In this document: piece after piece, positions 5,106 through 23,552 of the stretch
How positions within the stretch are numbered: the stretch's first letter is position 1
Layout: each line of letters opens with the position of its first letter
DNA from: Aeromonas veronii bv. veronii
GTDB taxonomy: Bacteria > Pseudomonadota > Gammaproteobacteria > Enterobacterales > Aeromonadaceae
Length of the DNA: 24,000 bases
Assembly (NCBI RefSeq): GCF_000820225.1
Contig: NZ_CDDK01000025.1
Location: 153,041-177,040, forward strand
Direction of reading: 5' to 3'
Made by a program: the position numbers and the translations under genes
The notes under the pieces: generated by a model
Databases searched by the model: none
What the model was told of the DNA's origin: nothing
The model's input: only the letters and a program-made list of their open reading frames with translations

Positions 5106-5133
5106 TTGATGTTTCACCGCGGCGAAACATCAA
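5106..5133. terminator. Perfect 10-bp hairpin between convergent genes (terminator-like, no clear U tract)
   Basis: TTGATGTTTC-accgcggc-GAAACATCAA lies between the LysR stop (5083) and the DUF1820 stop (5147). Confidence 0.4.
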
Positions 5134-5146
5134 GGGCAATAAGGGA

Positions 5147-5470
5147 TTAGGGACGTTTGGTATAGATGGGGCTGGGGAAGGAGGCGACGTTGCTGCCCAG
5201 ATCCGTGATGCGGGCAGCCCCCTGCTTTTTCACCTGATCGATGCGCAGCACCTGATGCATGGGAATAAGGGTCTGGCGCACATCGGCAAATTCGCTCTTG
5301 AGCTTCTCGTGACTGGGATCGACGATAAGCGCCGTATGGTTATCCCAGACAAAATCGGCAATCTCGATAAAACCGAACAGCTGGCCCTGATTGACTTCGC
5401 GCACATACACTTCGTAGCGCTCGCTGTGGCAAATAAACTGAACTCGATATAACGCCTTGCTTTCACTCAT
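5147..5470 (-). CDS. DUF1820-family small protein
   Basis: The 107-aa product has LYRVQF...YEVYVREVNQGQLFGFIEI.DFVW......IVDPSHEKLKSEFADV...IPMHQVLRIDQV. This matches the conserved pattern I remember for DUF1820 proteins of Pseudomonas and other gammaproteobacteria. The SD is weak. Confidence 0.65.
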   Translation of the reverse strand: MSESKALYRVQFICHSERYEVYVREVNQGQLFGFIEIADFVWDNHTALIVDPSHEKLKSEFADVRQTLIPMHQVLRIDQVKKQGAARITDLGSNVASFPSPIYTKRP

Positions 5471-5608
5471 GATTATCTGTCATTGAGGGGTAAGAAGATG
5501 GCCATTATTCTAGCCGCCGTTCTCGCCCCCTCCAATAGACAGAAATCACAGTTGCGGCCTTTCCATGCCACACCTAACGCCATGACGGTCACCGGATGAC
5601 GCAGCCAC

Positions 5609-6496
5609 TCAACCCATCAAGGCAGGCAGTGAGACCAGCCCCAATCCCGCTGCACGCAAACGGCTGGCCAGCTGTTCCAGCTCGGTTTGGCTAGCCTCTG
5701 GCCATTGCATCGCCTCCCCCCGCACCCCGTGGTGGCGAAAGCCGTTGAGGCGAATGGGCACAGGCCCAAGCTGCTGCAAGAAGGCGGCAAGATCCGCGTC
5801 CAGCTCACCATTCGCATCCAGAAAATCGCTCTTGCCCGGCACATGGAGCAGCCGCAACTCGGCCAGCTTGCCGTGGCGTGCCAGCAGTTGCAGCGATCCC
5901 AGCACCCGCTCGCGACCATAGCCGGTCAGAGTGTGATGCACCGAGTCACGCCACCCCTTGAGGTCGATCATGGCGCCGTCGAGCACCGGCAGCAGCCGCT
6001 GCCAGCCGGTTTCGGCCAGCGAACCGTTGCTGTCGAGCAGGCAAGTGAGATGGGTCAGATCCGGCGCGGCCTTGATGGCGGTAAACAGAGCCGCCACGAA
6101 AGGAAGCCGGGTGGTCGCCTCACCGCCGGAGACGGTAATTCCGCTCAGCAATGGACCATAGCGGCGCAGCAGGGCCAGCACATCGTCCACCGTCATGGTG
6201 GCAGTCTTGGGGTTGGCACTGCGCGGGCAGACATCCAGACAAGCGTCGCAGTCGGTGCAGAGCGCCGTCTGCCATTGTACCTTGCCTTCGCTCAAGGTGA
6301 GGGCGCCGCTCGGGCAGACCGCAAGGCAGTCACCGCAATCGTCGCACAGCCCTATGGTGTGCGGGTTGTGGCAGCCGGGGCAGCGAAAGTTGCAACCCTG
6401 CAGAAACAGCACCAGCCGGTTGCCCGGCCCGTCGACACAGGAGAACGGCAGCACCCTGCTTACCAGGGCGCTGCGTGTTGGCAAAACATCAGCCAT
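5609..6496 (-). CDS. yjjW: Glycyl-radical-enzyme activating radical-SAM protein (YjjW type) with two extra ferredoxin-like clusters
   Basis: The 295-aa product has FSCVDGPGNRLVLFLQGCNFRCPGCHNP (CX3CX2C radical-SAM motif preceded by the activase VDGPG motif). It also has CDDCGDCLAVCP and CTDCDACLDVCP (two CxxCxxCxxxCP motifs) and the SAM-binding-like motif ITVSGGE. It starts 11 nt after the yjjI stop. Confidence 0.8.
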   Translation of the reverse strand: MADVLPTRSALVSRVLPFSCVDGPGNRLVLFLQGCNFRCPGCHNPHTIGLCDDCGDCLAVCPSGALTLSEGKVQWQTALCTDCDACLDVCPRSANPKTATMTVDDVLALLRRYGPLLSGITVSGGEATTRLPFVAALFTAIKAAPDLTHLTCLLDSNGSLAETGWQRLLPVLDGAMIDLKGWRDSVHHTLTGYGRERVLGSLQLLARHGKLAELRLLHVPGKSDFLDANGELDADLAAFLQQLGPVPIRLNGFRHHGVRGEAMQWPEASQTELEQLASRLRAAGLGLVSLPALMG

Positions 6497-6506
6497 CGGT
6501 GCGAAC

Positions 6507-8033
6507 TCAATACTCGCCGATGGTCGATTCGTGGGCGACCACTCGCGGAGCTCGCTGACGAATGGCGGTCACTTCACTCGCCTCCGCACCGAGACAGGTG
6601 GTCTGCAACCGCGAGCCTTCTTCTGCAAAGCGGGCCACGTCGCTCTTGCGGATCATGTAGCCGGTCACCCGCACCAGATCGCTGTCGGCCACGTTGGCGG
6701 TGAACTCGCGCATACCGATGGCGAGCGCCCCTTTGCAGAGCTGCAGCAGTGCCTGCGGGTTCTGACGGATGGTGGGATCCAGCGTCAGGATCTCGCTGAT
6801 CCCCGAATGGTAATAAGTGTGGTGCGGCGCCAGTGCCAGCACATGGCTTGCCGGATCCGGCTCATGCCCGTAGGGGATGCGCACCCCGGGAGTGACCGCT
6901 ACATCGATGCTGAGGCCACCCTGTGAGTGCAGCAGCGCGCGACCACCCCAAGCATGGGTTTGCGGCGTCGCAGTGACATATTCCGAGAGCTGGGCCGAGA
7001 TGCGATAGCCAAGCTGGTTCGCCTCCTCGCCATGGCCGTAGCGATCCGGCAGATTCTCTTTATCCATCAGGATATTGACCGCTTCCGCCATGCCGTAGAT
7101 GCCGAACATGGGGACAAAGCGATCCTCATCCAGCAGCCCCTCTTTCACCAGGAAGCTGTCGAAGAAACCGGACTCATCGTGAAGGAAGGCGGCCCGCGCG
7201 TCGATCAGCTGAGAGGCCAAGCGGCAGTAATGGGGCAGCAGGCAACCGAGGAAATCATCGATCCCCTGACACTGCTCGGCGACCCGCTTGAGGGAGATGC
7301 GCACCAGGGTATTGGCGCCACCCGCCTGCGGCAGGGCGTTGTAGCAGCTGACGATACCAAAACCACGAGCGTCGAAGGTATCGCGGTGGATCGGGTAGTT
7401 GGCGATGTGCGGCTTGCTGCACTCGGCGATGTTCTTCACCGCCTGCAGCAGCAGATCGTCCGGGGTCTGCTCCGGATCGTGGAAGAAGGTGAGGTTCGGC
7501 GCCACCTGCTTGAGCTCGTTGTCGATACGCAGGATCAGGCGGCAGATGCGGTTGTCATCCGGCCCGATGTTGACGTGCATGAAGGCGTCCGGCAGCACCC
7601 TGTCCAGATAGACCCAGAACCCCTTCAGCTTGTGATAGAGGGTCTCGTCATCCAGTTCGCCGACGAAGGGCAGCAGCAGGTGGTCGAGCCGCCCCAGCCA
7701 GACCGGCATGCCGGTAACGGAGGGGACATGGTGATAGAGGATGCGCAGGGCGTTGAGCGCCTCGTCGAAATCCTGCGGCGCCGCCAGCTCAAGCCAGGCA
7801 GAGCCCTGAGTCAGAAATTTTTCATAGTCCGGCAGCACATAACGCGGCTTGTAGGGGGCGTGCCCTTCGAACATGTCGCAGATAAATCCCTGCTCCATCG
7901 CCTCGGCGACTGCGGCAGGCAGGTCGGGGTAGGGCAACGCATTCTCGGCGGCCAGCGCCAGCGCGTGGCTCTTCTGGGCAGCGGAGAGATGGGGATCGCG
8001 CACGATACGCTGACAGGTTTCGATCAAAGACAT
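6507..8033 (-). CDS. yjjI: Short atypical glycyl-radical enzyme of unknown function (YjjI / DUF3029 type)
   Basis: I chose the ATG at 8033 (gaaggagtgtcccATG), giving 508 aa; the track start at 8132 has no SD. A glycyl-radical fingerprint, DLVRVTGYMIR (RVxGY), lies about 60 aa from the C-terminus. The size and the pairing with a YjjW-type activase match E. coli yjjI-yjjW. Confidence 0.8.
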   Translation of the reverse strand: MSLIETCQRIVRDPHLSAAQKSHALALAAENALPYPDLPAAVAEAMEQGFICDMFEGHAPYKPRYVLPDYEKFLTQGSAWLELAAPQDFDEALNALRILYHHVPSVTGMPVWLGRLDHLLLPFVGELDDETLYHKLKGFWVYLDRVLPDAFMHVNIGPDDNRICRLILRIDNELKQVAPNLTFFHDPEQTPDDLLLQAVKNIAECSKPHIANYPIHRDTFDARGFGIVSCYNALPQAGGANTLVRISLKRVAEQCQGIDDFLGCLLPHYCRLASQLIDARAAFLHDESGFFDSFLVKEGLLDEDRFVPMFGIYGMAEAVNILMDKENLPDRYGHGEEANQLGYRISAQLSEYVTATPQTHAWGGRALLHSQGGLSIDVAVTPGVRIPYGHEPDPASHVLALAPHHTYYHSGISEILTLDPTIRQNPQALLQLCKGALAIGMREFTANVADSDLVRVTGYMIRKSDVARFAEEGSRLQTTCLGAEASEVTAIRQRAPRVVAHESTIGEY

Positions 8034-8155
8034 GGGACACTCCTTCACGGACAGAGCCCATATCCTTACCATTTGCAGGCTTTTTTTGAAGTGACATTCA
8101 TGACATGACGGATGTCGAATAATGACATCCATTACACAAGATCACGGCTCACGCT

Positions 8156-8491
8156 TCACCAAGGTAGGAGCTCGGCTATGCCTCCCAGCCAGCGCAGCAG
8201 GAAGAAGCCCCCCATTCCACCCACCACCACAACCAGAGTCGGCAGCCGCAACAGGGTCAAGAGCATCACCCACAGGGTGGCGGTCAGGTAGTCAGGATCC
8301 CAGTCAAGACCTATCCCCGGCTCGTAGCTAAAGACGATGGGCAACCAGATGGCAGTCAGCACCGACTGGGCCGAGAAGCCGAGAAACGCCCCCATCTCGG
8401 CACCCGGCTGATATCGGGTCAACCGAGAAAAGAAGGCGAAGCGGTTGAAAAAGGTGATCAGGGCCAGCAGGCCAATCATCAGCCAGCTCAC
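8156..8491 (-). CDS. azlD: AzlD-family small membrane subunit of a branched-chain amino acid exporter
   Basis: The product is 111 aa and very hydrophobic (about 3-4 TM). A GTG start follows AGGAGGtagcGTG directly after the azlC stop; an alternative ATG lies at 8479. This is the typical azlC-azlD (ygaZ-ygaH-like) pairing. Confidence 0.75.
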   Translation of the reverse strand: MSWLMIGLLALITFFNRFAFFSRLTRYQPGAEMGAFLGFSAQSVLTAIWLPIVFSYEPGIGLDWDPDYLTATLWVMLLTLLRLPTLVVVVGGMGGFFLLRWLGGIAELLPW

Positions 8492-8492
8492 G

Positions 8493-9200
8493 CTACCTCC
8501 TCATCCGGTGCAACACATAGCCCACCACCATGCCAGCCAGAGCCGAGACGATGATGTGGATCTCCGCCAGCAGCGGCTTGGTAAGCAACGCTGTGCCGCC
8601 GCTCACCAGAGTGGCCGCCACCATGGGCAAGTTTTTCATGGCGGGAATGGTCATGGCGATGAAGGTGGCCGCGATGGCAAAATCCAGCCCCATGCTGTCC
8701 AGTCCATCGATGTACTGGCCGGCCGCGATGCCGAGCAGGGTCGCCAGATTCCAGAACAGATAGAAGACGAATCCCGCGATGAGCGCGTAGGCCGGATCAA
8801 AGTGGCCGCTGCGCTCCCGGTCTTTCAGCGCCACAGCGAACATCTCATCAGTCAGGAAAAAAGCAAGGCTGGCCCGCCAGCGCAGGGAGAGCGGCAATAC
8901 GTCACGGCGGAAGGTGAAGCCGTATAGTAGATGCTGGGAAGTGATCACCATGGTGGAGCCCATGATGGGCAGCAGGGGCGTGCCCGCCCCGAACAGGGTC
9001 GTGGCCGAGAGCTGGGCGGCTCCGGCGTAGACCAGCAACGACATCAGCTGAGCCTGAAGCGGACTCAGCCCTGCCTGCAACGCCAAAGCGCCACACAGGA
9101 TCCCCCAGGGGATCACCGAAATGGAGAGCGGGAGCATATCCAGTGTGGCACGCCACCAGAGCATCCCCGTTCGCTCGGGCACGCTCGTTACTGACATCAT
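8493..9200 (-). CDS. azlC: AzlC-family branched-chain amino acid exporter subunit
   Basis: I chose the ATG at 9200 (caaggaagatcacATGATG). The AzlC-like segment reads LPLSISVIPWGILCGALALQAGLSPLQAQLMSLLVYAGAAQL...VITSQHLLYG...FFLTDEMFA. Confidence 0.8.
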   Translation of the reverse strand: MMSVTSVPERTGMLWWRATLDMLPLSISVIPWGILCGALALQAGLSPLQAQLMSLLVYAGAAQLSATTLFGAGTPLLPIMGSTMVITSQHLLYGFTFRRDVLPLSLRWRASLAFFLTDEMFAVALKDRERSGHFDPAYALIAGFVFYLFWNLATLLGIAAGQYIDGLDSMGLDFAIAATFIAMTIPAMKNLPMVAATLVSGGTALLTKPLLAEIHIIVSALAGMVVGYVLHRMRR

Positions 9201-9280
9201 GTGATCTTCCTTGTCACAGCCAAAGCGAGCCGAAAAAACTAGCACGGGACAGCAAGCGCTGTCACGTCATCACTGGCGGG

Positions 9281-9309
9281 AAATAAAACGCCCGCGGAGT
9301 CGCGGGCGT
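9281..9309 (-). terminator. Rho-independent terminator of the L,D-transpeptidase gene
   Basis: The minus strand reads ACGCCCGCG-actc-CGCGGGCGT followed by TTTATTTCC, 12 nt after the stop at 9321. Confidence 0.7.
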
Positions 9310-9320
9310 GCACAAGGGGA

Positions 9321-9800
9321 TCAGGGCTCGATGACGATGGGCGTACCCGGATCAATAGCGTCCCACACCTCATCCAGCTCGTGGTTGAGCATGGCGATAC
9401 AGCCGTTGGTCCAGTTGGAAGGCTGAACCCTGCGGTTGCCAATGCTGTTGCGCTGGCCGTGGATCATGATCATGCCACCCGGACGAACACCCAGCTCATT
9501 GGCGCGCTTGATGTCATCCAGGTTCGGATAGTTGATATGGATGGCTTTGTAGTAGCCGGAATTGGTCTTCTTGTAGTCGAGGGTGTAGCGCCCTTCCGGC
9601 GTACGCTGATCCCCTTCCTGCTGCTTGTGCCCCTTGGGCGCCGGGCCCAGAGCAATCCAGTAGCGCTTCAGTTCTTTGCCATCCTTCATCAGGGTCAGGC
9701 TGTAGGTCGACTTCTTGACCACCACCAAATCGGCTTTTTCGGTCAAGGCAAAACTCAATGCGGGCCAAAGCCCCAACAAACACAGTAATACGGCTCTCAT
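9321..9800 (-). CDS. Small secreted L,D-transpeptidase (YkuD domain)
   Basis: I chose the ATG at 9800 (gagggatggaATG), giving 159 aa. The signal peptide is MRAVLLCLLGLWPALSFALTE. The catalytic motif is MIMIHGQRNSIGNRRVQPSNWTNGCIAM (His...TxGC). Confidence 0.8.
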   Translation of the reverse strand: MRAVLLCLLGLWPALSFALTEKADLVVVKKSTYSLTLMKDGKELKRYWIALGPAPKGHKQQEGDQRTPEGRYTLDYKKTNSGYYKAIHINYPNLDDIKRANELGVRPGGMIMIHGQRNSIGNRRVQPSNWTNGCIAMLNHELDEVWDAIDPGTPIVIEP

Positions 9801-10079
9801 TCCATCCCTCGACAAGCCTCTGGTGCGGGCTTTTCTTGTTACCAGATCATCTGAACGATGCCCGCCGAGCGGCGAGCGAGCGCCATGATATTGGATCGCC
9901 ATCAATACTCAATATGCCCGGCAAAACATATCTTGCCGCAGCCAGGCCATCTTCCTTGAACGCTGTCATTTTGCATTGGTAATTAATAGTTAAAACAACA
10001 AGATACAAAAAATTATCGCGCTGGCACCCGGGGCAATGATCGGCGAAGATAACACTCCACTCCCCGACAGGATCATGCC

Positions 10080-13000
10080 ATGCGCTCTTCGTGCCGCCTC
10101 GCCACCCTGCTGTTCTCGCCACTCCTGCTCTGGCTGCCCGCCAGTGTCGCCGCCGATGCACTCTGGCTGCACGAGCCCGCCCTCTCCCCCGATGGCAAGC
10201 AGCTTGCCTTCACCTGGCAGGGGCGCATTTTTGTCGCCAGTGCCGAGGGTGGCCCCGCTACGGCGCTCACCGGCAGCGACTACCTGAGCCAGCGGCCGAT
10301 CTGGTCGCCGGATGGCAAACGGCTCGCCTTTGCCGCCAATCTCTACGGCAACGAGGATGTGTTCGTGGTACCCGCCAGCGGCGGCGAGATGGTGCGCCTC
10401 ACTCGCGATTCGCGCACCGATCTGCCGCAAGCCTTCAGCGCCGATGGCAAACGGCTGTTGCTGAGCAGCCAGCGCCTGGGGGCGCCCGATGCCGACCATT
10501 TTGTCGCGGAAGGCTACCAATGGGGCGAGCTCTACTGGACCCCGATCACCGGCGGCACCTTGCAGGCCGATCTGCCGCTGCCTGCGACTCTCGCCCGTCC
10601 CCACGGGGAGCGGCTCGTCTACCAGATGCCCGCGGCGGATCAACCCTTTCGCAAGCATCAGCACTCGTTTGCGGTGCCCCGCCTCTGGCTGTTTGATGGC
10701 AAGCAGCACAAGCAGCTGACCGAAGATCGGGTGGCGGCCACCGATCCGGTCTGGAGCGACAAGGGAGATGCTCTCTTTTACCTGAGCGAGCGCAGCGGTG
10801 ATTTCAACGTCTGGCGCCGGGATCTCGCCAGCGGCAAGGAGCAACAGCTGACCCACTATCAGGGCCATCCGGTGCGGGGGCTCAGCGCCTCTCGCAATGG
10901 CGATCTGGTCTGGTCATGGCTGGGGGAACTCTATCGCCTCGATGCCGATAGCAGCGAGCCACGCAAGCTGACCCTCACCCCGCAAGTGGCCAGCGCGCCG
11001 GATGAGGCGAGCGAGGCCCTGACCCTGGCAGACGAAGCGCTGGTCAGCGAAGAGGCGGATGAGCTGATCCTGGTGAGCGAGGGCAACCTGTTTGCCGTTG
11101 ACCCCGAGCGGGATCGGGTGCGCCAGCTGACCCGCGATCCGAGCGAGCAGTCCAGCCCCCTCTTCGCCGAGCAGGGCCGCGCCCTCATCTATCTGTCGGA
11201 GCAGCAGGGGCACGCCGCCCTCTATCGCCTGCGCAAGGGGGATCCGGATCTGCTGTTCAGCGATCCTGGCACTCTGACCGAGAGTCTGCTGCTGGCGATT
11301 CCCGACAAGGGGATCAGCCGTCCGGTGCTATCCCCCGACGGCAAACAGCTCGCCTTCGTGGTCGATGGTCAGGCCATTCATCTGCTCGATCTGGCGAGCA
11401 ACAAGCAGCGGGAGCTGGTCCCTGCCAGCCTCAACCCCTCGCGCCACGAGGTGCATCTCGCCTTTGCCCCAGACTCCCGCCATCTGGCGCTCACCTTCCG
11501 CCCCGATGCGGCAGAGCAGGAGATCGCGGTGATCGACACGGCCAACCCCAAGGCCAAACCGGTCAATGTCAGCCTCAACGGCTATCAGGATGGACAACCG
11601 GGCTGGAGTCAGGATGGCGCCATCCTCTACTGGCAATCGACCCGGTTTGGCGCACTGGGGCCCGATGGCGAGCCCCTCGTCACCAACCTGCTCGGCATTT
11701 ACAGCAGCCGCGCCGCCAGAGCCGATGCGATTGCCGAGCTGGAGCCGCCGAAAGGGGGATACGGTTTTGAGAGCGATCGTCTCAACCATAGAGAAGCACT
11801 GCTGCTGCAACCCACCGGCACCATGCTCGCCAGCCGCATCATCGGCGACCAGCTGATCTATCTGGTGGAGGAGATGGGGGTCAACAGCGAGAGCGAGATC
11901 AAGGGCTACAGCCAGGATCTGCGCAAAGGCAAAACCAGCGAACTGTTTGGCGAGCAGCCCGGCCCAGCGCTGGCAAGCCTCAACCAGCAGGGCACCCTGG
12001 CTACCCTGGTGCGGGATGGGGAGATCACCCGGATCCACCTCGACTCCGGCGAGGCCACCAGCGCCCCCTTCGCCTTGCAGCCCACCAGCCGCTGGCAGGC
12101 ACGCATGACCGCCGCCTTCGATCAGATCGCCCGGCTCACCCGGGACGAGTTCTATCTGGACGATATGAACGGGGTGAACTGGGATAGCTATGTCGCCGCT
12201 TACCGCCGCCTGCTGCCGGGCATCGGCAACCCGCGGGACTTTGGCAACCTGCTGGCGGAGCTGGCTGGCGAGCTCAATGTCTCCCACACCTGGGGCAGCG
12301 GCCCCGCCCCCTTCCCGCGCATGGCGGACGAGACCGCCAGCCTTGGCGGCTACTGGCAGGATGGCGAGCAAGGGGTGATGCTCACCGCCCTGCTCTCTGG
12401 CGGCCCGCTGGATCAGGAGAGCGATATCGCCCCGGGCGCCCGCCTGCTCGCCATCAACGGCGTCCCGATTGCCAATCTGGCCGAGCTGGATCAAGCCCTT
12501 AACCATCAGGCCGGTGCCCGGCTCGCCCTCATCTTCCAGCAGGAGGGCAACAAGCAAACTGACGAGGTGGTGCTCACCGCCATCGACAAACAGCAGGAGT
12601 ACCAGCTGCAACAGGATCGCTGGATTGAGAAACGGCGGGAGCTGGTGGCCAGCCTGAGCGGAGGACGGGTCGGCTACGTCTATCTGCCGGCAATGAATAG
12701 CGAGGTCTACGATGCGGTGGTGGCGGATGCCCTCGGCAGACAGCGCAATCGCGATGCGCTGATCGTCGATGTCCGCTTCAACAGCGGCGGCTATCTCGCC
12801 AATACCCTGGTAGAGTTTCTGACCGGCAGCGGCAGCACCAAGGGGATGGCCAGCAGCTGGCCCCGTCAGGGCAAGGGGGAAACCGATGCCGCCACTCGCC
12901 AGTGGACCAAGCCCTCGGTGGTGCTGGTCAACGCTGGCAGCTACTCGGAAGGCTCCGCCTTCCCCGAGTACTACCGCACCCTCAAGGTCGGCCCCATCGT

Positions 13001-14706: not shown

Positions 14707-14863
14707 GTGATCACCCTTGTTGGCTCGCCCCTCTTCACAGGAGATGGCGCACAATCCACCTCCGCTGTGATTGACGACCTGCCAGAAAAAGGAATCAAAT
14801 GGGGACGTTACATATCTGCGGCGGAAAACCTGCTGCCCACTCTTCTGCACAAGGAGTCCCCCC

Positions 14864-15097
14864 TTGCTTTCATCCACTGAACAACGCGTCTGCCCGAGTT
14901 GTCAGCGCGAGACCAACCATGTCGTGGTGCTGGTCGACAAATCCTTTGGCCAGCAGCTGACACCGGAGCAAAAGCGCAAAGCGTTTATCAAGGACTTCAT
15001 TACCGGCTGGGCCGCCGGCCCCTTTCTGGCAAACATGGATCGCTTTGAACGCCACACCATCTGTGAAAATTGCGGAAATAAAGTTATTGATGAATGA
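14864..15097 (+). CDS. Possible small zinc-ribbon protein (77 aa, TTG start)
   Basis: The start context is aaggagtccccccTTG. The product is LLSSTEQRVCPSCQRETNHVVVLV...RHTICENCGNKVIDE, with CxxC motifs at both ends. Third-position GC is enriched through the middle of the frame. I recognise no family. The longer track ORF from 14771 lacks an SD. Confidence 0.45.
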   Translation: MLSSTEQRVCPSCQRETNHVVVLVDKSFGQQLTPEQKRKAFIKDFITGWAAGPFLANMDRFERHTICENCGNKVIDE

Positions 15098-15150
15098 AAA
15101 AGGGGGGGGGCAATTGCGGGCGTCAATACACCAGCCACCTTTTATGGCCG

Positions 15151-15190
15151 AAATCCAAAAGAAGGCGTTGCGATTCAGGATCACAACGCC
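15151..15190 (-). terminator. Rho-independent terminator of the three-gene synthase operon
   Basis: The minus strand reads GGCGTTGtGATcctgaATCgCAACGCC followed by TTCTTTTGGATTT, 8 nt after the adaptor gene stop at 15198. Confidence 0.65.
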
Positions 15191-15197
15191 ATAGACA

Positions 15198-16247
15198 TCA
15201 ATCAAACAACACGGTCACCGGCAACCCTTCCACTTGCAGGTTCGGGGGTAATTTTTCATCCAGCGAGAGTGCGACCTTGAGGGTTGCTTTCTCCCCTTCA
15301 AACGGTGCTGCAAGCTGGGCTGGCAGCTTGTCTGCAAGCTCCACAGGTCTGGCAACCCTAGCCGCCAAACGCTCACCACTGGGCAACTTGACGATAGCCT
15401 TATGACCCGGCTTCATCGAGGAGAGGTATTTTGGCAATACGTAGGCAATGACCAACGGGTCTTCCCGCTTAGCGATCAACGCGAGGGGGGCCCCCGAGAA
15501 GACCCAGTCCCCCTCCTGCACCAGCACATCTGAGACCTTGCCGGTAGCTGGGGAAAGGGGTTGCTGCTGCCTAGTGATAGCTTGCATCTCGGTTAGCTCC
15601 TGCACCAACTGGTGGCGCGCACTGGCCAGTGGCCCTGTCAGCTGATCTTCTTTGATCTGCAACTCTTGCTGCATTTTTTCAGATCTTGCCTTCTGCAAAT
15701 CGATACGAGACTGGGTCCAGCTCAGCAAGGCACTGGCATACTCGGCGCTGGAAACCAGTTTCTCCTTCCTATACCCCGCGTACTCCTGATAGATCCCCTC
15801 CTGCTCATTAGCCCCCCGCTCTGCGATACGAATCTGCTCATCCAGGTTACTCAATATCGCCTGTTCGGCAGCGCTCTTGTCCAGCTCGATCGCTTTTAGA
15901 CGTGCTTTACGCCCCTCTATATTGGCCCGTAGCGTCGGCGACTCGAATCGCATCAGGGCATCCCCTTGCGAGACGGCTTGACCGGGAGACATATAAATGT
16001 TGCGAATGAAGCCATCTCCATTGGCCACCACAAGTTGAGGTTCCGTCGTGATGATGGCAGGCGCCTGGGTCAGCCACCACTCTCGTCCCAGATACCAGAG
16101 CAGTATGATGACGGGGCTGAATGCCAACAGCAGGATCAGATACCAGCGGGCCCGAAATGCGATGCGCTTGGCGGGGGCATAGAGCACCCGAATCCCTTGA
16201 TCAGAGGTAGCGTCCTGTTTCTTGGGGGGATTAAATGTGACTTTCAT
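15198..16247 (-). CDS. HlyD-family periplasmic adaptor / membrane fusion protein (MxdC/BgsB-like)
   Basis: The ATG at 16247 overlaps the GT2 stop (TGATG, 1-nt overlap), giving 349 aa. There is an N-terminal TM anchor (WYLILLLAFSPVIILLWYL) and a lipoyl-like hairpin (GFIRNIYMSPGQAVSQGDALMRFESP). A long coiled coil follows (EGRKARLKAIELDKSAAEQ...LQKARSEKMQQELQIKEDQL), then a second half-barrel (GKVSDVLVQEGDWVFSGAPLALI). Confidence 0.85.
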   Translation of the reverse strand: MKVTFNPPKKQDATSDQGIRVLYAPAKRIAFRARWYLILLLAFSPVIILLWYLGREWWLTQAPAIITTEPQLVVANGDGFIRNIYMSPGQAVSQGDALMRFESPTLRANIEGRKARLKAIELDKSAAEQAILSNLDEQIRIAERGANEQEGIYQEYAGYRKEKLVSSAEYASALLSWTQSRIDLQKARSEKMQQELQIKEDQLTGPLASARHQLVQELTEMQAITRQQQPLSPATGKVSDVLVQEGDWVFSGAPLALIAKREDPLVIAYVLPKYLSSMKPGHKAIVKLPSGERLAARVARPVELADKLPAQLAAPFEGEKATLKVALSLDEKLPPNLQVEGLPVTVLFD

Positions 16248-17587
16248 CAGAATTTGTTTCCTCGTTTTAATACCCACCAGGGAGCCATACTGCTCTCCTC
16301 ATGACCGCGACGGAAAATTTCGTTGAGCAGTGCCACGGCACACCATAGACGCATCAGCAGGGTATAGAGCGGATACAGCAACAACCATGGCAACATACGC
16401 ATATCCGCTTTAGGCCGCTCGGAAATGGCAAGCAAAAACACCATAAAATTGACCAGAGTAAGAAGCAGATAGACCTGGTAGAGGCACAGCATCAAGGCCG
16501 TAACGAACGGACCAGGATAACTTAACACCAGCCACCAGCTGTACCCCATGACCAACAGCGGCAACACCACGTTTTGTGCCACCCCGTAGATCAGAGTGAA
16601 CAAAAAGGTCTTCCATCCCAAGATGCGCGGAGTCAGCGATAGCTTGTGTTTGCGCAGGTAGAGAAACAGCAAATCCCCATCCCAGCGCAGACGCTGGTTT
16701 GCCAGGGTCACCAAATCTGCAGGGGCGTCCGTGTGACCAATGGCTCTGGGGGCAAAGCCGATCTTCAGATTGGGATGGCGTTTGAGGTAGTGCTTGATCC
16801 GCACCGTTAAATCCAGATCTTCTGCTGTGTGGGTATCCCACCCTCCAATCTGGCGCAGGAAATCGAGGCGAAAAGCCCCGAATGCCCCCGAAATATTGTT
16901 GATCAGGTTCCATTCGCTCAGACCCGTTTTGCCCCCCTGCATGGAGATCATGTACTCGATCCCCTGCATACGGGTCAGCAAACCATCGCGCAGGTTGCGC
17001 ACCCGCAACGCCCCACCAACGGCGGGCACGTTCGGGTCATCGAAGCAGGCGACAATCTCATCGATCATGTTGTTGTCGAAGGAAGTGTCCCCGTCTGCAT
17101 TCATGACTATCTCGCCTGTTGCCGCCGACAAGCCAGCATTGAGGGTCGATACCCGCCCGCCACGCTGCCACTTGGGCAGTAGCACTAGGGTACGTCTCTC
17201 ACATCCCTCAAACTCGGCGATACAGTTTAAGGCCGCCTGATAGGTATGGGCATTGGCCTTGGCACCATCGATCACCGCAATGATCTCCAGATGGCCGCGA
17301 TAGAGCTGTTCCTTGAGGGTCAGAATGGTCGAGCGGATCGCCTCCCCCTCGCCGTAACAGGTGATGATGCAGGAGACCTTGGGACAACGATGTGACAGGG
17401 GTAAATCAGACTTTTTGGGCAACTGACGGGCAAACCACTTGAGGATCCCGGTCAGGGTCAGCGCCATCAGGGGCACCTCCATCAGCAGCAACATGGGAAG
17501 CAGCAGCAGGATCATCCTGGGCGAAAACTGCAGACTGCCCAGGATCTCGGTCAGGATGTACCGAACCGTACTCATCCACTCAGGCAT
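16247..17587 (-). CDS. Integral-membrane processive family-2 glycosyltransferase (PgaC/IcaA/NodC/BcsA-class synthase; MxdB-like)
   Basis: The product is about 446 aa. Two N-terminal TM segments precede a GT-A core with VSCIITCYGE, AVIDG, NADGDT (DxD), HTAEDLDLT (TED) and NQRLRWDGD (QxxRW). The C-terminus carries 3-4 TM segments. The start is either the ATG at 17587, overlapping the upstream stop (ATGCCTGA), or the ATG at 17575. Confidence 0.9.
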   Translation of the reverse strand: MPEWMSTVRYILTEILGSLQFSPRMILLLLPMLLLMEVPLMALTLTGILKWFARQLPKKSDLPLSHRCPKVSCIITCYGEGEAIRSTILTLKEQLYRGHLEIIAVIDGAKANAHTYQAALNCIAEFEGCERRTLVLLPKWQRGGRVSTLNAGLSAATGEIVMNADGDTSFDNNMIDEIVACFDDPNVPAVGGALRVRNLRDGLLTRMQGIEYMISMQGGKTGLSEWNLINNISGAFGAFRLDFLRQIGGWDTHTAEDLDLTVRIKHYLKRHPNLKIGFAPRAIGHTDAPADLVTLANQRLRWDGDLLFLYLRKHKLSLTPRILGWKTFLFTLIYGVAQNVVLPLLVMGYSWWLVLSYPGPFVTALMLCLYQVYLLLTLVNFMVFLLAISERPKADMRMLPWLLLYPLYTLLMRLWCAVALLNEIFRRGHEESSMAPWWVLKRGNKF

Positions 17588-18923
17588 CCTGAAGGCTCCC
17601 ATCCAGCCAGCGGCTCAACCAGAGGGCAGTATCTTCACCCAGCGTGGTAGGGAGCGGCTCTACCTGCACATTCAGCGTCAAGGCATCCAGCCCCTCGACA
17701 TTGTTGAGCGCCAGGATCCGCCCCTGCAAGATCTGCCAATCCTCCACACTGGTGTGCGGCAGCAACAACAGCAGTCGATCATCGGCATACTGGCAAACCA
17801 CATCGGTATCCCGAAACAATGCCTGCAGACGAGCCAGCAAGGCCCCCAATCTCTGCTGAGTCTTCAACAGGCCCAATTCGGCGCGCAGCTCGGCGAGCTG
17901 CTCGATCTGGATAGCCAAAAGGGTATGGTTGCCGCCGTGGCGCTGCAGCAGCCGGTTGCTCCATTGCAGCAGCCAAGGGAAGTGATCCATCGCCATCGGA
18001 GCCCCCCAAGTCAGGGGCAGATGCAACTGCTGAGTACCCTCGCGAGCAATATGGCGAGCCAGTTTGCCGATGCGGTACTCATAGATGGGAGACACCAACA
18101 GATCATCGGGTTTGTGAGCCCGCCCACACTCATGACATCGCGCCTGTACTGCCGCCTCCATGAAACGGGCATGGCAAGAGAGACAGCGGTACTTTTCCAG
18201 TGGTCTGTCGTAGTCGACCCCTATATGACGCAGGGTTGTCACACACTTGGGACAACGCAGCAAACCCTGTTGCATGAAGACATCCTGATCGTCCACATGA
18301 CCGCAGGTGAAACAGTGCACCGCAGGCTTGGCCTGGATGGCGATATGGGAACATTCTGGACATACGTCGACAAAATTAAGATGAGCAGAGCTGCAACTGC
18401 TGCACAGGCGTACTCGATCGACCAGTTGTTCAATCTGCAATAGCCGCTCGGAGACCAGTTGCGGCAAGGATGCAGTTGCATCGGCCCCCAGCAAACAATC
18501 CAGCAGCGGGTAGCTGTAGCCCTGGCGACAACCTGCCTGCCAGCGAGGTAACAAACGGAAATGAGCCCTCGGCCAGCTGTACCAGGCCAGCTTCTCCATT
18601 TCGTCGGGGTGTTCACGCGGCGTCAGCAATGACAGTCGCTCCAGCATGTCTGGTGCTCTCTCATCCAACTGTGACAGAAGGCCATCAGACAGAATCGGAG
18701 ATAGCGGGCTTTGCGTCACGCAAAATACGGGATACAGAAAGCGAGAAGAATCGCGACGGATCGCCAGCAAGATTCGATCCTGCTCTTCACTGGGTAAGTT
18801 AAGCAGCAATACCGGCAGTTCGGCTGGCCGCCACTGGGACAAGTCACTGAGAGACCGGGTGTTTCGCTCTACCGGTGTCCCCAGCAAGGAGACTAGGCTG
18901 AGCGGTTCACTTGTACTCGTCAT
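17580..18923 (-). CDS. Multi-domain regulator: N-terminal domain of unknown fold + three tandem zinc ribbons + degenerate GGDEF domain retaining the RxxD I-site (putative c-di-GMP receptor; MxdA-like, TackOD1-like middle region)
   Basis: The product is 447 aa with SD gaggtgatttttccATG. Six CxxC motifs lie at residues 174, 188, 204, 224, 247 and 263 (CSSC, CPEC, CFTC, CPKC, CLSC, CHEC). The C-terminal segment LLAIQIEQLAELRAELG...LARLQALFRDTDVVCQYADDRLLLLLPHTS aligns to the GGDEF-domain consensus. ADDRL replaces GGDEF and IQIEQ replaces the metal-binding DxDxF, while RDTD sits exactly 5 residues before the degenerate motif, as the RxxD I-site does in PleD. Confidence 0.8.
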   Translation of the reverse strand: MTSTSEPLSLVSLLGTPVERNTRSLSDLSQWRPAELPVLLLNLPSEEQDRILLAIRRDSSRFLYPVFCVTQSPLSPILSDGLLSQLDERAPDMLERLSLLTPREHPDEMEKLAWYSWPRAHFRLLPRWQAGCRQGYSYPLLDCLLGADATASLPQLVSERLLQIEQLVDRVRLCSSCSSAHLNFVDVCPECSHIAIQAKPAVHCFTCGHVDDQDVFMQQGLLRCPKCVTTLRHIGVDYDRPLEKYRCLSCHARFMEAAVQARCHECGRAHKPDDLLVSPIYEYRIGKLARHIAREGTQQLHLPLTWGAPMAMDHFPWLLQWSNRLLQRHGGNHTLLAIQIEQLAELRAELGLLKTQQRLGALLARLQALFRDTDVVCQYADDRLLLLLPHTSVEDWQILQGRILALNNVEGLDALTLNVQVEPLPTTLGEDTALWLSRWLDGSLQDA

Positions 18924-19337
18924 GGAAAAATCACCTCATTCAGCAGGCAAAAATAGGGGATGGCCCGATGGGGCTTTTACCTCAGTATCAACCTAGATAG
19001 AAAAAGTGGAGAACAGACTCACCATCCAGGCCGGTGCAAGTGTCACAGCCGACACAAATGACCGATGTTTGGAACATTAGAGGAACCAGAAGAGAGCCAA
19101 CGATAACCAAGGCCATATTCCTATATGCCACCCAGCCATCTCCGGGCGGAGCCCTGAGGCTTTCTGAAGCGGGTTAACACCTGGGGAGGCAAGAGCGCCA
19201 GCGCTGTCCAAAGAATAATAATCAGCAAACGCTATAGTGTAATTACTTATTACTTCATCCATTGAACTCTACGCAACATCAAAATACTGAAATATTGGGG
19301 TTACACGGATTTTTCTGCAGAATTATTGCGCTGATAT

Positions 19338-19370
19338 GATATAGCCCTGCACGGGTTGCAGGACTATATC
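19338..19370 (-). terminator. Long hairpin downstream of the M3 peptidase gene (terminator-like, poor U tract)
   Basis: GATATAGCCCTGCA-cgggt-TGCAGGACTATATC forms a 14-bp stem with one C/T mismatch (a G-U pair on one strand). It lies 38 nt after the stop at 19408. Confidence 0.4.
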
Positions 19371-19407
19371 CACATAAATGGCTCAACCTTAGGAGCCGCA
19401 TCCCGCG

Positions 19408-21240
19408 TCAATGCTTGATGCGCTGGGCTACCCACGCTTCGAAATCGGCCAGCATACGGGTTTCCGACTCGCTGTTGTCGGCAATAAGCTCGGCGCCGTG
19501 TACCACCCGGATATGGGCATCAAGCGGGCTTCCCTCACCCGCCGCGGGGCGCTGCTGCGCGGCGGCCATGCAGGCTTGTGCCTGTTGCCACGCTTCGGCG
19601 ACGCTCAGGTTGCACGCCTCGGCCAGCGGCACGGCACTGAAGCCTTCACCGGTCAGGCTGCGCAATGTCTCATCATGAGTCATGCCATTGCCCGGCCCCC
19701 AGTAGTGGGCAGCCAGATCCGGCCCGATACGCGGGTTGTCGGTGAGGTAGCCATCACGCTTGAGGAAGTAGGCGCGGGTCTGCTCCACCGCCATCAGCGC
19801 CAGCAGGTAGCCGTGATAGGCGCAGGCCGACTCCTGATTAAGGAGGTGCGGAATGGCCAGCAGCGGGCGCGGGCTCTCGACACCGAGGATCTTGCGCTCC
19901 CACTTGCGGGCCAGCGCCAGCACAGCCTCGGGAGTACGTTCAGCCTCATCCATGGCGTAAAGATCCCGCTCGAAGTAGGCCACCAGCGCGATCTGACGTT
20001 CGTTAAAAGCGCGAAACGGCTGACGCGCTTCAATCATCTCCTTGATGAGGGCATCAGGCACAGCCTCTCCCGCCGCATTTCTGGCGTAGCGTTTGAGCCA
20101 GTCGGCATCGTCCAGCAGGCTGTCGCAGAACATTGACTGGGTCTCGGCATAGGCCATGGAGGTGGGCGGAAACTCCTGTGAGAAGCAGGGGGCGTTGCCG
20201 GTGACATTGGCAAAATGCGCGGCGTGGCCTCCCTCGTGGAACAGGGTGTTGAGGCCACTCCAGCCGCTGCCCACCTGCGCCGGATCGGCCAGGCTGGTGA
20301 AGTTGACCACAGCTGGCACCCACTCCCCCTGTTGGAAGAAGCTCGGTACCGGGCCGTGGCAGAAGCCGTTCTCGTATTTCCCCTCCCGGGTCAGCAAATC
20401 CAGGGTCAGGGTCGCCCCGCGATACTGGATGCCGAGCCGACGGAAACTCTCAACCCAATCCCGCAGCGCCCGTGAGAAGGGCACGTAAGGATCGAGCTGG
20501 CGGGTGACGTCGCCGCTCACGCTGTAACGCAGGTTGTGGGGCAGCAGGGCCGCCTCGCCCTTGGCGGCCTTCAGCTCGGCCAGGCTCTGCTGCAACCGAG
20601 CGTCGGTGCGGGCAATAAAGTCGTCGAGGATGGCGAACAGCTGCTCCGGGCTCATCTGCTCGTTCTTGCGCACCTTGTAGTCGAAGTAGTCGCGATAGCC
20701 CATGGCGCGGGCAAAGCGGTTGCGGATCGCCACCACCTCGAGAAAACCGTTGCCGACCACCCACTGCTCCAGGGTGTGGAACATGGCGAGCGCGCTCTGG
20801 CGCACCGCCTCGTTCGGGCTGGCGGCAAGGGAGGTACTCGCGGCGGGCAGGCTGCCTGCGACCTGCTGGCCCTGCTCATCCAGCAGGGTCAGTTTCAGCC
20901 CCTTGCGGCGGGCGAACAGCGCCGCCTCGGCAGCCACCAACTCATCCATCAGGGCGGATGCGGCGGGATCTTCAATCACATTGCACTCGAAGAAGGCGAT
21001 CCAGCCTTGCAGACCGCGCTTGAGATCATCCTCGTCGGCCTGCGCCAACATCTCCCGCAATTCGGGCAGACGGGCCGGATTGGCACAAAAGGCCTTGTAG
21101 GCCTGCTCGGCCGCGGTGAAACCGGCCTGATCGTCGCTGGTGCCCATATAGGTGGACCAGAAGAGATCCTCCTTGCGCCTGTGCACCTGTAGGTAGTCGG
21201 CGTTGAGCTGGTTGAAGTAATTCCTGGCAATGGAACTCAT
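19408..21240 (-). CDS. M3-family zinc metallopeptidase (oligoendopeptidase-like)
   Basis: The product is 610 aa with SD agagggaatttATG. The zinc motif is LNTLFHEGGHAAHFANV (HExxH). The protein is cytoplasmic (no signal peptide), and its length and helical character fit M3 oligopeptidases. Confidence 0.75.
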   Translation of the reverse strand: MSSIARNYFNQLNADYLQVHRRKEDLFWSTYMGTSDDQAGFTAAEQAYKAFCANPARLPELREMLAQADEDDLKRGLQGWIAFFECNVIEDPAASALMDELVAAEAALFARRKGLKLTLLDEQGQQVAGSLPAASTSLAASPNEAVRQSALAMFHTLEQWVVGNGFLEVVAIRNRFARAMGYRDYFDYKVRKNEQMSPEQLFAILDDFIARTDARLQQSLAELKAAKGEAALLPHNLRYSVSGDVTRQLDPYVPFSRALRDWVESFRRLGIQYRGATLTLDLLTREGKYENGFCHGPVPSFFQQGEWVPAVVNFTSLADPAQVGSGWSGLNTLFHEGGHAAHFANVTGNAPCFSQEFPPTSMAYAETQSMFCDSLLDDADWLKRYARNAAGEAVPDALIKEMIEARQPFRAFNERQIALVAYFERDLYAMDEAERTPEAVLALARKWERKILGVESPRPLLAIPHLLNQESACAYHGYLLALMAVEQTRAYFLKRDGYLTDNPRIGPDLAAHYWGPGNGMTHDETLRSLTGEGFSAVPLAEACNLSVAEAWQQAQACMAAAQQRPAAGEGSPLDAHIRVVHGAELIADNSESETRMLADFEAWVAQRIKH

Positions 21241-21516: not shown

Positions 21517-23199
21517 ATGTTCAAGCTCGGTGATATTACCGTGAGCCGCAAATTGATTTTGCTGCTCGCACTGGCGTTTGTCGGTTTTGTCTCGCTGCTG
21601 CTTATCTCGGCCAACGCGCTCCAACGCAATCTGATGAGCGAGCGAGAGGCGCGGCTCAATGCGGTACTGGAGCAGGCCATGAGCCAGATCCAGTTTCTGG
21701 CCAGCACCCTGCCAGCAGAGCAGGCTCAGCAGGAGGCACGCAAGCTGCTGACCAACACCCGCTTTGATGGCAACAACTATTTATTCGTCATCGACGAGAA
21801 CCGCACCATGGTGGTTCACCCCATCCGTCCCGAACTGGTCGGCCAGAAGATGGGTGAAGGGGGCGCCGCCACCGCCGGGCAGTTCTGGTATCAGATGGTG
21901 GATATCGCCAAAGGGGGCAAACAAGGCACTCTGCAATATGTGTGGGTCGGCCCGTCGGGTGAGACCGCCGACAAGCTATCCATGGTCTCCGGCTATCAGC
22001 CCTGGGGCTGGATCCTCGGTTCCGGCATGCTGCTGCAAGATATTCAGCAGACCATCTGGGCCCAGTACATGAAGATGGGGACCGCCACCGCCATCGTGAT
22101 CCTGCTGATGGGGCTGCTGGGCTGGCGTATTACCCATTCCATCGTCTCCCCCCTCAGCCAGATCAACCACGCCATGCAGCGGGTCGCCAAGGGGGATCTG
22201 GTGGTAAGCATCCCGGTACAGGGCAAGGATGAGCTGGGAGTGGTCGCCCGCTGCACCAACCAGAGTCTCGATGCCATCCGTCACGCCCTGCTGGAAGCCA
22301 GCCAGGGGGCTCGCAACGTGGCGGATGCCGCCCTGCGCATCGCCGCCTCTGCCGAGCAGACCAATCAGGCGGTCACCAGCCAGCGGGATCAGCTGGCCCA
22401 GCTCGCTACCGCCATGAACGAGATGAGCGCCACCATCTCCGATGTGGCCGGACACGCCGAAAATACCGCGCGGGATACCCAGGAAGCGACCGGTGAAGCG
22501 GGCCTCGGCAACCGTGATGTTCATGCCAGCGTGCACGGCATCAAGGCGCTGGCCACCGAGGTGGAGCAGGCCACCCAGCAGGTCAACCAGCTCAAAGAGG
22601 GAGTGATGCAGATCAGCGAAGTGACCGCCGTCATCAGCGCCATTTCGGAGCAGACCAACCTGCTGGCCCTCAACGCCGCCATCGAAGCAGCACGGGCTGG
22701 CGAGCAGGGCCGCGGTTTTGCCGTGGTGGCCGACGAGGTGCGCCAGCTGGCCAGCCGCACTCGCCAATCCACCGAAGAGATCCAGAGTACCATTGCCCAA
22801 CTGCAGCAACGGGCCGTCACCGCCGCCAACGCCATGGATACCAGCCGCAAACTGGCAGAGAGCAGCGTCAACCAGTCCCAGCAGGCGGGGCAGGATCTCA
22901 CCCTGATCGTCAACCACATCCAGCATGTAAGCGACATGGCAACCCAGATCGCGACCGCCGCCGAGCAGCAGAGCATGGTGGCCGAGGATATGAACCGCAA
23001 CGTCAGCGGCATCAACGACTCGGCGCTGGAGATGTCCCAGTCCGCCTCGCAACTGGCGCAGGAGAGCGAGCTGCTGGCCGGTCTCTCCCGCAGTCTGGAT
23101 GAGCGACTTGCGGTGTTCAAACTGGGTAAGGAGTCCGCCGCGGCGCCGATGATGGCGCCCCAATCTCCCCCCTCCGGCGAGCAGCACGCCCGCCATTGA
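21517..23199 (+). CDS. Methyl-accepting chemotaxis protein with a periplasmic single-Cache-type sensor, HAMP and MCP signalling domain
   Basis: The product is 560 aa. It has an N-terminal TM and a sensor region with [25 protein letters not shown] and [12 protein letters not shown] (sCache_2-like). A second TM is followed by HAMP ([17 protein letters not shown]). The conserved hairpin region is [35 protein letters not shown]. Confidence 0.9.
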
Positions 23200-23258: not shown

Positions 23259-23469
23259 ACGCCGCAAAACACGCAGCAAGCATGCATCTTATTGGCATAT
23301 TCAACGGTATTCGACGCCATTCACAAACAAGAGAACAATTTAAAAACAGCCAGTTAGAATGATTTACGCGCCATTGGATGATGCATTTAAACATTCAACT
23401 TCAAATAGCGAATCAATGCAGTGCACAATGCTGATGGCCGAACATTTGGCCCATCACTAATCATCTAGT

Positions 23470-23552
23470 CATTTGGCAAACTGACCGAAAGGTCGGGACG
23501 CAAAGCCTCCGGTCTACAGACGTTTTGTCCAGGATAGCGGGGTTGCCACACG
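23470..23552 (+). promoter_or_regulatory. c-di-GMP-I (GEMM-I) riboswitch aptamer in the gbpA leader
   Basis: The sequence is GGCAAACugaccGAAAggucGGGACGCAAAGCCUCCGGucuacagacguuuugucCAGGAUAGCGGGGUUGCC. The strings GGCAAAC, GGGACGCAAAGCCUCCGG and AGCGGGGUU.CC, and the GAAA tetraloop-capped P2 hairpin, match the V. cholerae Vc2 aptamer sequence I remember almost base for base. GGCAA and UUGCC close P1. In V. cholerae the Vc1 member of this class lies upstream of gbpA. Confidence 0.85.

Follow-up and report, generated by a model that had tools for sequence, protein, structure and literature searches.

An mxdABC-type operon of Aeromonas veronii predicted to encode a c-di-GMP-controlled exopolysaccharide synthesis and export machine

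A stretch of 24,000 nucleotides from Aeromonas veronii bv. veronii (assembly GCF_000820225.1, contig NZ_CDDK01000025.1, positions 153,041 to 177,040; hereafter the window) carries three adjacent minus-strand genes, called A, B and C here, for a cytoplasmic protein with a degenerate GGDEF domain, a family 2 glycosyltransferase (GT2) and a HlyD-type adaptor. We conclude that this operon is probably the A. veronii orthologue of mxdABC of Shewanella oneidensis, that is, a synthase-dependent exopolysaccharide machine controlled by cyclic di-GMP (c-di-GMP) through a separate receptor subunit. An initial annotation of the window had proposed a minimal c-di-GMP-gated machine for exopolysaccharide synthesis and export, and this proposal is supported by the orthology, by an invariant RxxD motif in gene A, by the synthase fold of gene B and by relatives of the operon that include a TolC-family gene.

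The three proteins were compared with those of S. oneidensis MR-1. Gene A aligned with MxdA at 36% identity over 414 aa (E 2e-84), gene B with MxdB at 61% over 447 aa (E 0) and gene C with MxdC at 35% over 350 aa (E 4e-69). MR-1 MxdA had been found by cluster look-up (protein P0239), and its chromosomal locus (L081) is included in Table 1. Judged by these full-length alignments, A, B and C are orthologues of MxdA, MxdB and MxdC, and the likeness to mxdA-mxdB-mxdC pointed out in the initial annotation is a true orthology. The S. oneidensis operon mxdABCD (SO_4180-SO_4177) and that of the window have the same domain architectures, the same order and the same tight coupling. S. oneidensis has mxdD whereas the window does not; a tblastn search of the window for an mxdD equivalent found none, as had been noted for the region after the adaptor gene. 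Among 80 related loci (see below), mxdD was detected by tblastn only in L081 and one other Shewanella locus (L018), and the S. oneidensis MxdD protein is a low-complexity protein with a single transmembrane (TM) segment. Since mxdD is seen only in these two Shewanella loci, it is clade-specific, the core of the operon is ABC and the missing mxdD of the window is the rule. S. oneidensis mutants in mxdA or mxdB show no aggregation and no three-dimensional biofilm; an exopolysaccharide was put forward as the product of MxdB, and MxdC was described as efflux-pump-like and MxdD as without homology (PMC3691769). Regulation through ArcS/ArcA and BarA/UvrY and a link to CheY3 are features known on the Shewanella side. 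Genetic study of an Mxd-type module was found only for S. oneidensis in the literature searched, where no paper defines the Mxd polymer, in agreement with the initial statement that this polysaccharide is chemically undefined.

The junctions of the operon were re-read from the window, and the coordinates, the stop/start overlaps and the separate terminator that had been annotated were all confirmed. Genes A and B meet in ATGCCTGA, where gene A ends in ...GAT GCC TGA (TGA at 17582-17580) and the gene B ATG at 17587 lies within the same letters, giving an overlap of 8 nt. Genes B and C meet in TGATG and overlap by 1 nt at 16247, the last base of the TGA being the A of the gene C ATG. An intrinsic terminator lies directly 3' of the gene C stop and has by far the longest stem among the 6 terminator-like sites in 14800-19450; the number of such sites is itself near chance level (6 against a shuffle mean of 4.0 in this 4.6-kb scan). 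As read from their junctions, genes A, B and C form one transcription unit and are translationally coupled. The three-gene pattern is not a chance one, because the same arrangement recurs in dozens of genera. The 484-bp leader 5' of gene A was searched for a c-di-GMP riboswitch and other RNA elements, and none was found at E<=1. The gene A protein of the window is 100% identical to A. veronii proteins.

Relatives were collected with a pattern derived from the alignment of gene A relatives, using one genome per species. At least 587 places in these species-representative genomes encode a gene A relative, and the best 80 were kept. They include Aeromonas, Photobacterium, Aliivibrio, Vibrio, Shewanella, Rheinheimera, Tolumonas and Cellvibrionaceae as well as Pseudomonas/Stutzerimonas, Burkholderia, Methylococcales and Comamonadaceae. 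When the three window proteins were aligned to these loci by tblastn, a synteny check that the initial annotation had asked for, the order A-B-C on one strand was present in 76 of the 76 loci with a long enough contig; the remaining four (L002, L010, L032 and L046) end at a contig end. In Aeromonas, Tolumonas, Aliivibrio and Shewanella, too, neighbouring genes of the operon overlap or abut. Gene B is the most conserved across the loci (51-98% identity), and the identity of A and C declines to about 30-39% beyond Aeromonas and Photobacterium. When 1.84 billion cluster representatives were searched exhaustively with HMMER, 249 clusters (50% identity) were obtained at E<=1e-30 and 1141 at E<=1e-10; the proteins listed are mostly 440-480 aa in length. 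Mxd-type modules are present in Aeromonas, Vibrio parahaemolyticus, V. mimicus/cholerae, Aliivibrio fischeri, Plesiomonas, Shewanella, Pseudomonas/Stutzerimonas and on plasmids. A pan-genome study lists VPA0393 and VPA0394 of V. parahaemolyticus only as "hypothetical" IcaA/BcsA-like and EmrA-like genes (PMC11961994). A. fischeri has two paralogous A-B-C operons about 14 kb apart on the same contig (L014 and L022), the first of which lies directly downstream of EAL-GGDEF and CHASE-GGDEF genes and is followed by a gene for a methyl-accepting chemotaxis protein (MCP). The EAL-GGDEF and CHASE-GGDEF genes are presumably the studied c-di-GMP enzymes VF_A0475 and VF_A0476 (PMC10402110), a paper in which the gene A copy goes unmentioned.

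Gene C encodes a protein with one TM segment (aa 36-54), a coiled-coil hairpin and matches above threshold to Pfam HlyD_D23 and HlyD_3, and its first description as a classical single-TM HlyD-type adaptor stands. The relatives indicate where such an adaptor may lead. In 24 of the 80 loci, a gene of about 700 aa lies between B and C, whose product matches Pfam OEP (TolC-type outer-membrane efflux protein) and has a signal peptide; these loci are from Pseudomonas, Stutzerimonas, Paucimonas, Phytopseudomonas and Burkholderia catarinensis. The four-gene form is also present at 4482-10304 of the Aeromonas caviae plasmid pKAM329_3 (L082), a 29-kb, MOBP mobilisable plasmid on which RefSeq names the products, in order, "diguanylate cyclase", "glycosyltransferase", "TolC family protein" and "HlyD family ... 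adaptor". On the plasmid, the TolC-family product carries a signal peptide and shares 94% identity with its counterpart in Stutzerimonas stutzeri TS44 (L071); the plasmid proteins are only 36%, 54% and 28% identical to A, B and C of the window. A gene for a PAS-domain MCP adjoins the plasmid operon. Searched by sequence, the TolC-family protein of the operon had no relative among solved structures.

In an alignment of 79 MxdC-type adaptors, the hairpin is 14 alignment columns shorter and carries a near-invariant GAATRGE tip exactly in the lineages with the in-operon TolC gene. The three-gene lineages, including the window, have a longer hairpin with a tip of the (Y/F)xx(K/R)G.VS..(D/E)YA type (gene C aa ~150-185, nt ~15690-15800). 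In tripartite pumps, adaptors contact TolC-type channels through the hairpin tip. Because the hairpin co-varies with the TolC gene and its tip corresponds to this contact site, the alignment favours docking of MxdC on an outer-membrane factor; the three-gene operons would use one encoded elsewhere.

Two published systems follow a similar logic. For BgsA/BgsB of Sinorhizobium meliloti, a GT2 synthase with a HlyD-type adaptor as in the window, PMC13438883 reports activation by c-di-GMP, a requirement for tolC, encoded elsewhere, in production of the mixed-linkage beta-glucan, and a proposed tripartite complex; the likeness to the window is drawn from this published description. BgsA has seven TM helices and binds c-di-GMP through its own C-terminal domain, according to the same paper. 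Unlike BgsA, gene B has no extra C-terminal domain and ends right after its last helix, and the receptor would be a separate TackOD1-GGDEF protein; the gene order bgsB-bgsA also differs from the synthase-then-adaptor order of the window. For the extracellular cellulose of Thermosynechococcus, a route through a synthase, a HlyD-like adaptor and a TolC-like channel was proposed (Maeda 2018, as cited in PMC13438883). That system resembles the window in having a GT2-made polymer and the same three kinds of component, a comparison drawn from the literature only, and it differs in its cellulose synthase with a regulatory domain of its own and in its phylum; the passage that cites it mentions no TackOD1 receptor. 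The initial suggestion that a TolC-like channel is borrowed is indirectly supported by the in-operon TolC gene of the relatives and by the Bgs precedent.

The most conserved part of the 79 adaptors is their cytoplasmic N-terminal tail of 35 aa (gene C aa 1-35, window 16143-16247), with M1, K2, K9, P13, G18, V21, Y23, K27, R28, R34, W35 and Y36 as the conserved residues. This hints that the adaptor may also sense events on the cytoplasmic side. The tail would equally suggest an inner-membrane role, as expected if gene C were an obligatory periplasmic partner of the synthase, BcsB-like or co-polymerase-like, instead of a conduit to TolC; the polymer would then stay periplasmic or cell-bound, or exit in another way. 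That gene C matches no solved membrane fusion protein (MFP) by sequence, that it scores below all curated MFP family cut-offs and that the window has no outer-membrane gene are in keeping with such a role. It accords poorly with the HlyD_D23 and HlyD_3 matches above the Pfam threshold, with the TolC-family gene that directly adjoins the adaptor gene in the 24 loci and on the plasmid, with the co-variation of hairpin length with that gene, and with the TolC requirement described for the analogous Bgs system (PMC13438883). We consider a BcsB-like role unlikely, although it is the strongest of the alternatives to an adaptor-TolC route or to the other assignments made below.

Gene B matches Pfam Glyco_tranf_2_3, Glycos_transf_2 and Chitin_synth_2 and bears the motifs VIDGA (D107), DGD (D165/D167), T-A-E-D (E256/D257) and QRLRW (298-302), in which D107, D165, D167, E256, D257, Q298, R299, R301 and W302 are invariant in 30 gene B orthologues. 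The full GT2 signature that had been annotated was therefore borne out for D, DxD and QRLRW, whereas its "TED" is really TAED and not a strict TED. The catalytic domain lies between hydrophobic helices (N-terminal ~18-55; C-terminal 328-346, 361-379 and 402-420), and the protein ends 26 residues past the last of them. An AlphaFold2 (AF2) model, with a predicted local distance difference test score (pLDDT) of 86 and a predicted template-modelling score (pTM) of 0.85, places long N-terminal helices and four C-terminal membrane helices around a GT-A domain. All top Foldseek matches of the model are processive synthases embedded in the membrane; the highest-ranking are the hyaluronan synthases of Chlorella virus and Xenopus (template-modelling score 0.60-0.67, probability 1.0), followed by BcsA (ranks 16 and 25) and fungal and oomycete chitin synthases. 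As the motif residues are invariant and the top fold matches are all of this kind, gene B is predicted to be a processive synthase-translocase, in agreement with the flanking helices and processive class of the initial annotation. Two features are family-specific and strongly conserved in the 30 orthologues, RWDGDL and the C-terminal tail HEESSMAPWWVLKRGxKF (aa 429-446, window 16247-16303), which has a pLDDT below 50 in the model.

Gene B falls into none of the families whose product is known. Among curated families, PgaC_IcaA (TIGR03937) is its best match, over nearly the full length (E 4e-37) at 128 bits against an equivalog cut-off of 422.3, and so gene B is not a PgaC equivalog. Pfam matched neither a C-terminal PilZ domain nor a BcsB partner, both of which go with BcsA. 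Since gene B is nearest to PgaC/IcaA by sequence, though far outside that family, a beta-glycan based on N-acetylglucosamine (GlcNAc) or glucose is a reasonable guess for the product and nothing more. A clue to the sugar from nucleotide-sugar genes was dropped, as the plasmid galE and the epimerase of three Shewanella loci are not conserved across the loci. Such a galE occurs on an alphaproteobacterial plasmid of Alisedimentitalea scapharcae (L083, 5863-9229), where a GT2 gene (64% identical to gene B) and a HlyD gene are followed by galE, which overlaps mxdC, and the upstream genes are annotated as hypothetical only.

The nearness to PgaC/IcaA could also mean that the operon makes poly-N-acetylglucosamine (PNAG) or a close GlcNAc polymer, as a streamlined pga/ica-type system. 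The PgaC_IcaA and Chitin_synth_2 matches fit this, and several sources automatically annotate gene B orthologues as PgaC or N-acetylglucosaminyltransferase. PgaCD is under c-di-GMP control, and PgaCD/IcaAD and gene B share a 2+3 TM topology around the GT2 domain. However, the score of gene B is far from the PgaC cut-off, it shares only 28% identity with E. coli PgaC, over 68% of its length, and the invariant RWDGD and the HEESSMAPWW tail are specific to its family. PNAG systems export by the PgaA porin and not by an MFP; no PgaD, PgaB deacetylase or PgaA porin gene was found among the window neighbours scanned, and the partner here is an MFP with or without TolC. A PNAG product is, in our estimate, improbable.

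Still less credible is a short oligosaccharide or glycolipid, made in the manner of NodC and exported like a small molecule through MFP and TolC, in place of a matrix polymer. Small molecules or proteins are the usual cargo of MFP-TolC systems, and NodC (TIGR04242) is the third-best NCBIfam match of gene B (E 2.6e-19), but at 69.5 bits against a cut-off of 550. The C-terminal helices of gene B model as the channel of a processive synthase, and mxd mutants lose aggregation and three-dimensional biofilm (PMC3691769). BgsA/BgsB/TolC, moreover, exports a true polymer on the g/L scale (PMC13438883).

Gene A has no hydrophobic or TM segment and is predicted to be cytoplasmic. Its AF2 model, built from an alignment of 40 relatives, has a mean pLDDT of 86 and consists of three parts. 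The N-terminal domain shows a beta/alpha pattern at high pLDDT and has no Pfam match in 40 members of the family; compared with receiver (REC) domains, it gave only non-significant KdpE receiver matches (E 0.36-0.8) and an hhalign probability of 0.2 against a thin REC profile. The largest conserved part is TackOD1, the strongest family match of the protein (E 3e-56, 190 bits against a cut-off of 32), matched in 40 of the 40 relatives and absent from the initial description. In the work that defined it (PMC5847659), TackOD1 is an output domain of archaeal response regulators, rich in conserved cysteines and of "obscure" function. In gene A it holds six CxxC pairs (12 cysteines), of which 11, together with H203, are invariant in the 40 relatives and C174 nearly so, and it is predicted to be a multi-zinc ribbon. 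The C-terminal third matches Pfam GGDEF weakly (aa 324-405, E 4e-8) and has the GGDEF fold by Foldseek (probability 1.0; SiaD, PleD, WspR and DosC, E down to 5e-8).

At the active site of this domain, ADDRL (aa 380-384) replaces GG[DE]EF; RDTD precedes it by exactly five residues, as is canonical for an inhibitory site (I-site). R371 and D374 are invariant in 40 of 40 relatives; GG[DE]EF is found in none of them, and 34 different pentapeptides occupy the position. An invariant RxxD with a lost active-site motif reads as the signature of a cyclase domain turned receptor, and the dead GGDEF domain with a retained I-site that had been annotated is borne out by motif and fold. [quoted passage not shown] An NVDEF motif attributed to MxdA was not found at the aligned position of P0239, which has TRDGL. 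Alternatively, gene A would work as an enzyme or would alter the c-di-GMP pool indirectly, as its name "diguanylate cyclase" in the sources and the first report of indirectly altered c-di-GMP levels (Rakshe 2011, as cited in PMC3691769) would have it. This is the most improbable of the alternatives, given a GG[DE]EF site kept by 0 of 40 members and filled by 34 pentapeptides, and given the later work that calls MxdA a binding effector (PMC7666153, PMC11395469).

A comparable receptor exists in another polysaccharide system. PelD, of the Pseudomonas Pel machine, has a degenerate GGDEF domain that serves as a c-di-GMP receptor through RxxD. Gene A, by sequence and fold only, shares the degenerate GGDEF with a retained RxxD; PelD is membrane-anchored with a GAF domain, whereas gene A is predicted to be soluble, with TackOD1 and the N-terminal domain, and Pfam scans of the window protein and 40 relatives found no GAF match, nor was a TM segment found. 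Pfam PelD_GGDEF matched only one of the 40 relatives (E 0.098). Shortened versions of gene A, of 389 and 302 aa, recur in Aeromonas salmonicida records (P0027 and P0034) and may be pseudogenised copies.

From these data we propose the following mechanism. Genes A, B and C, as their sequence shows, are transcribed as one unit and translationally coupled. The catalytically dead GGDEF domain of the soluble gene A protein would bind c-di-GMP at RxxD, as shown for the S. oneidensis orthologue, and the liganded protein would activate gene B. It probably docks by TackOD1 or by the N-terminal domain on cytoplasmic parts of the synthase or the adaptor, the conserved C-terminal tail of B and the cytoplasmic N-terminal tail of C being candidate sites. 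Gene B would polymerise a sugar supplied as its uridine diphosphate (UDP) derivative and thread the chain through its own transmembrane channel, as its motifs and fold suggest. Gene C would then form a duct in the periplasm and pass the chain on to a TolC-type outer-membrane channel whose gene lies elsewhere in the A. veronii genome, a step proposed because relatives encode their own TolC-family protein in the operon and because of the BgsA/BgsB/TolC precedent.

Several points weigh against this model. The A. veronii case rests on sequence comparison and predicted structures, and identity to MxdA and MxdC is only about 35%. The polymer has been isolated for no family member in the literature searched. 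No tolC gene lies in the window, and for this reason the exit route is one that we infer. The NCBIfam matches of gene C to RND_mfp, EmrA and type_I_hlyD are all below cut-off, and a search by sequence against solved structures gave no significant match to any MFP. Six unusually long gene A relatives, checked for fusions to a synthase or adaptor, contained only TackOD1 with or without GGDEF. Nevertheless, the tripartite model accounts better than any rival for the insertion of a TolC gene together with the hairpin co-variation. The A. veronii operon is the orthologue of a genetically described system, and its export logic has already been published for two other GT2 synthases. The nature of the polymer, the role of TackOD1 and the coupling of receptor and synthase are questions common to the whole family and not specific to the window.

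Table 1. Features of the A. veronii operon (window coordinates) and genes of the S. oneidensis MR-1 mxd locus (L081 coordinates).
Feature	Coordinates	Strand	Remarks
Gene A (mxdA orthologue)	17580..18923	-	447 aa
Gene B (mxdB orthologue)	16247..17587	-	446 aa; alternative in-frame ATG at 17602 would give 451 aa
Gene C (mxdC orthologue)	15198..16247	-	349 aa from ATG; alternative GTG start at 16277
Shine-Dalgarno-like GAGGTG	18932..18937	-	8 nt 5' of gene A start; read from sequence
Intrinsic terminator	15154..15190	-	11-pair stem (15190-15164), 6 G-C pairs, then TTCTTTT
Gene A, N-terminal small alpha/beta domain	18624..18896	-	aa ~10-100; pLDDT 95-98, beta/alpha pattern
Gene A, TackOD1 domain	18069..18608	-	aa 106-285; PF18551
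Gene A, degenerate GGDEF-fold domain	17634..17990	-	aa ~312-430; Pfam and Foldseek
Gene A, RxxD motif (R371-D-T-D374)	17802..17813	-	Inhibitory-site-type c-di-GMP binding motif
S. oneidensis mxdA (L081)	7001-8389		TackOD1
S. oneidensis mxdB (L081)	8386-9714		GT2
S. oneidensis mxdC (L081)	9714-10769		
S. oneidensis mxdD (L081)	10951-11307		118 aa

The operon has a GC content of 54-59% (window 15001-19000) against 61-67% in the flanking genes, and only five Aeromonas species representatives are among the best 80 of at least 587 loci. Because of this lower GC, these few representatives and the related four-gene version on a mobilisable plasmid, the data suggest that the operon is an accessory, horizontally acquired module in Aeromonas. 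Eight open reading frames (ORFs) between 5609 and 23199 of the window were scanned against Pfam, those at 1-5500 lying outside the scan, and no polysaccharide-modifying or porin genes were found among them, consistent with the initial remark that none accompany the operon. Genes for an M3 peptidase, a ferric-reductase-like protein, a tricorn-like protease and an MCP are among the neighbours scanned. A plus-strand ORF of 108 aa (14771-15097), located between the operon terminator and the ferric-reductase-like gene, has CPSC...CENC cysteine pairs but no match in Pfam; it could encode a small zinc-ribbon protein or could be no gene at all. At 5609-8132 on the minus strand, a gene for a YjjI-like glycyl-radical enzyme (Pfam E 1e-214) adjoins a radical-SAM activase-like gene, unrelated to the operon.

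Signalling genes also lie close by. A c-di-GMP-I riboswitch (Rfam RF01051, 74.7 bits, E 2.9e-13) at 23465-23550 on the plus strand precedes an ORF that starts at 23616 and begins MAAKIQLNHIAAVLALLASGSALA|HGYISQPESRNYLCK; judged by eye, its product resembles a GbpA-type protein of the chitin-binding or lytic polysaccharide monooxygenase (LPMO) kind. The riboswitch marks a second c-di-GMP-controlled locus, 4.5 kb from the operon. Two genes from the operon, at 21517-23199 on the plus strand, is a gene for a Cache-HAMP MCP. The MCP genes near the operon in the window, in A. fischeri (L014) and on pKAM329_3 may be a coincidence or may be tied to the MxdA-CheY3 link of Shewanella.

The comparative data give a testable model of export, from synthase to adaptor to TolC, and they name targets for mutation: R371, D374 and the six CxxC pairs of gene A, the C-terminal tail of gene B, and the cytoplasmic tail and hairpin tip of gene C. 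A wider reading, which we hold to be possible yet doubtful, is that MxdA-type proteins are a widespread and distinct class of stand-alone c-di-GMP receptors that physically gate a GT2-adaptor-TolC machine making a chemically new polymer, with TackOD1 docking on the membrane machine and receiving input from phosphorylated CheY (CheY~P). If it were true, there would be a direct connection between chemotaxis signalling and matrix export in relatives from Aeromonas, Vibrio, Shewanella and Pseudomonas. In Aeromonas itself, the operon could contribute to differences in biofilm formation between strains.

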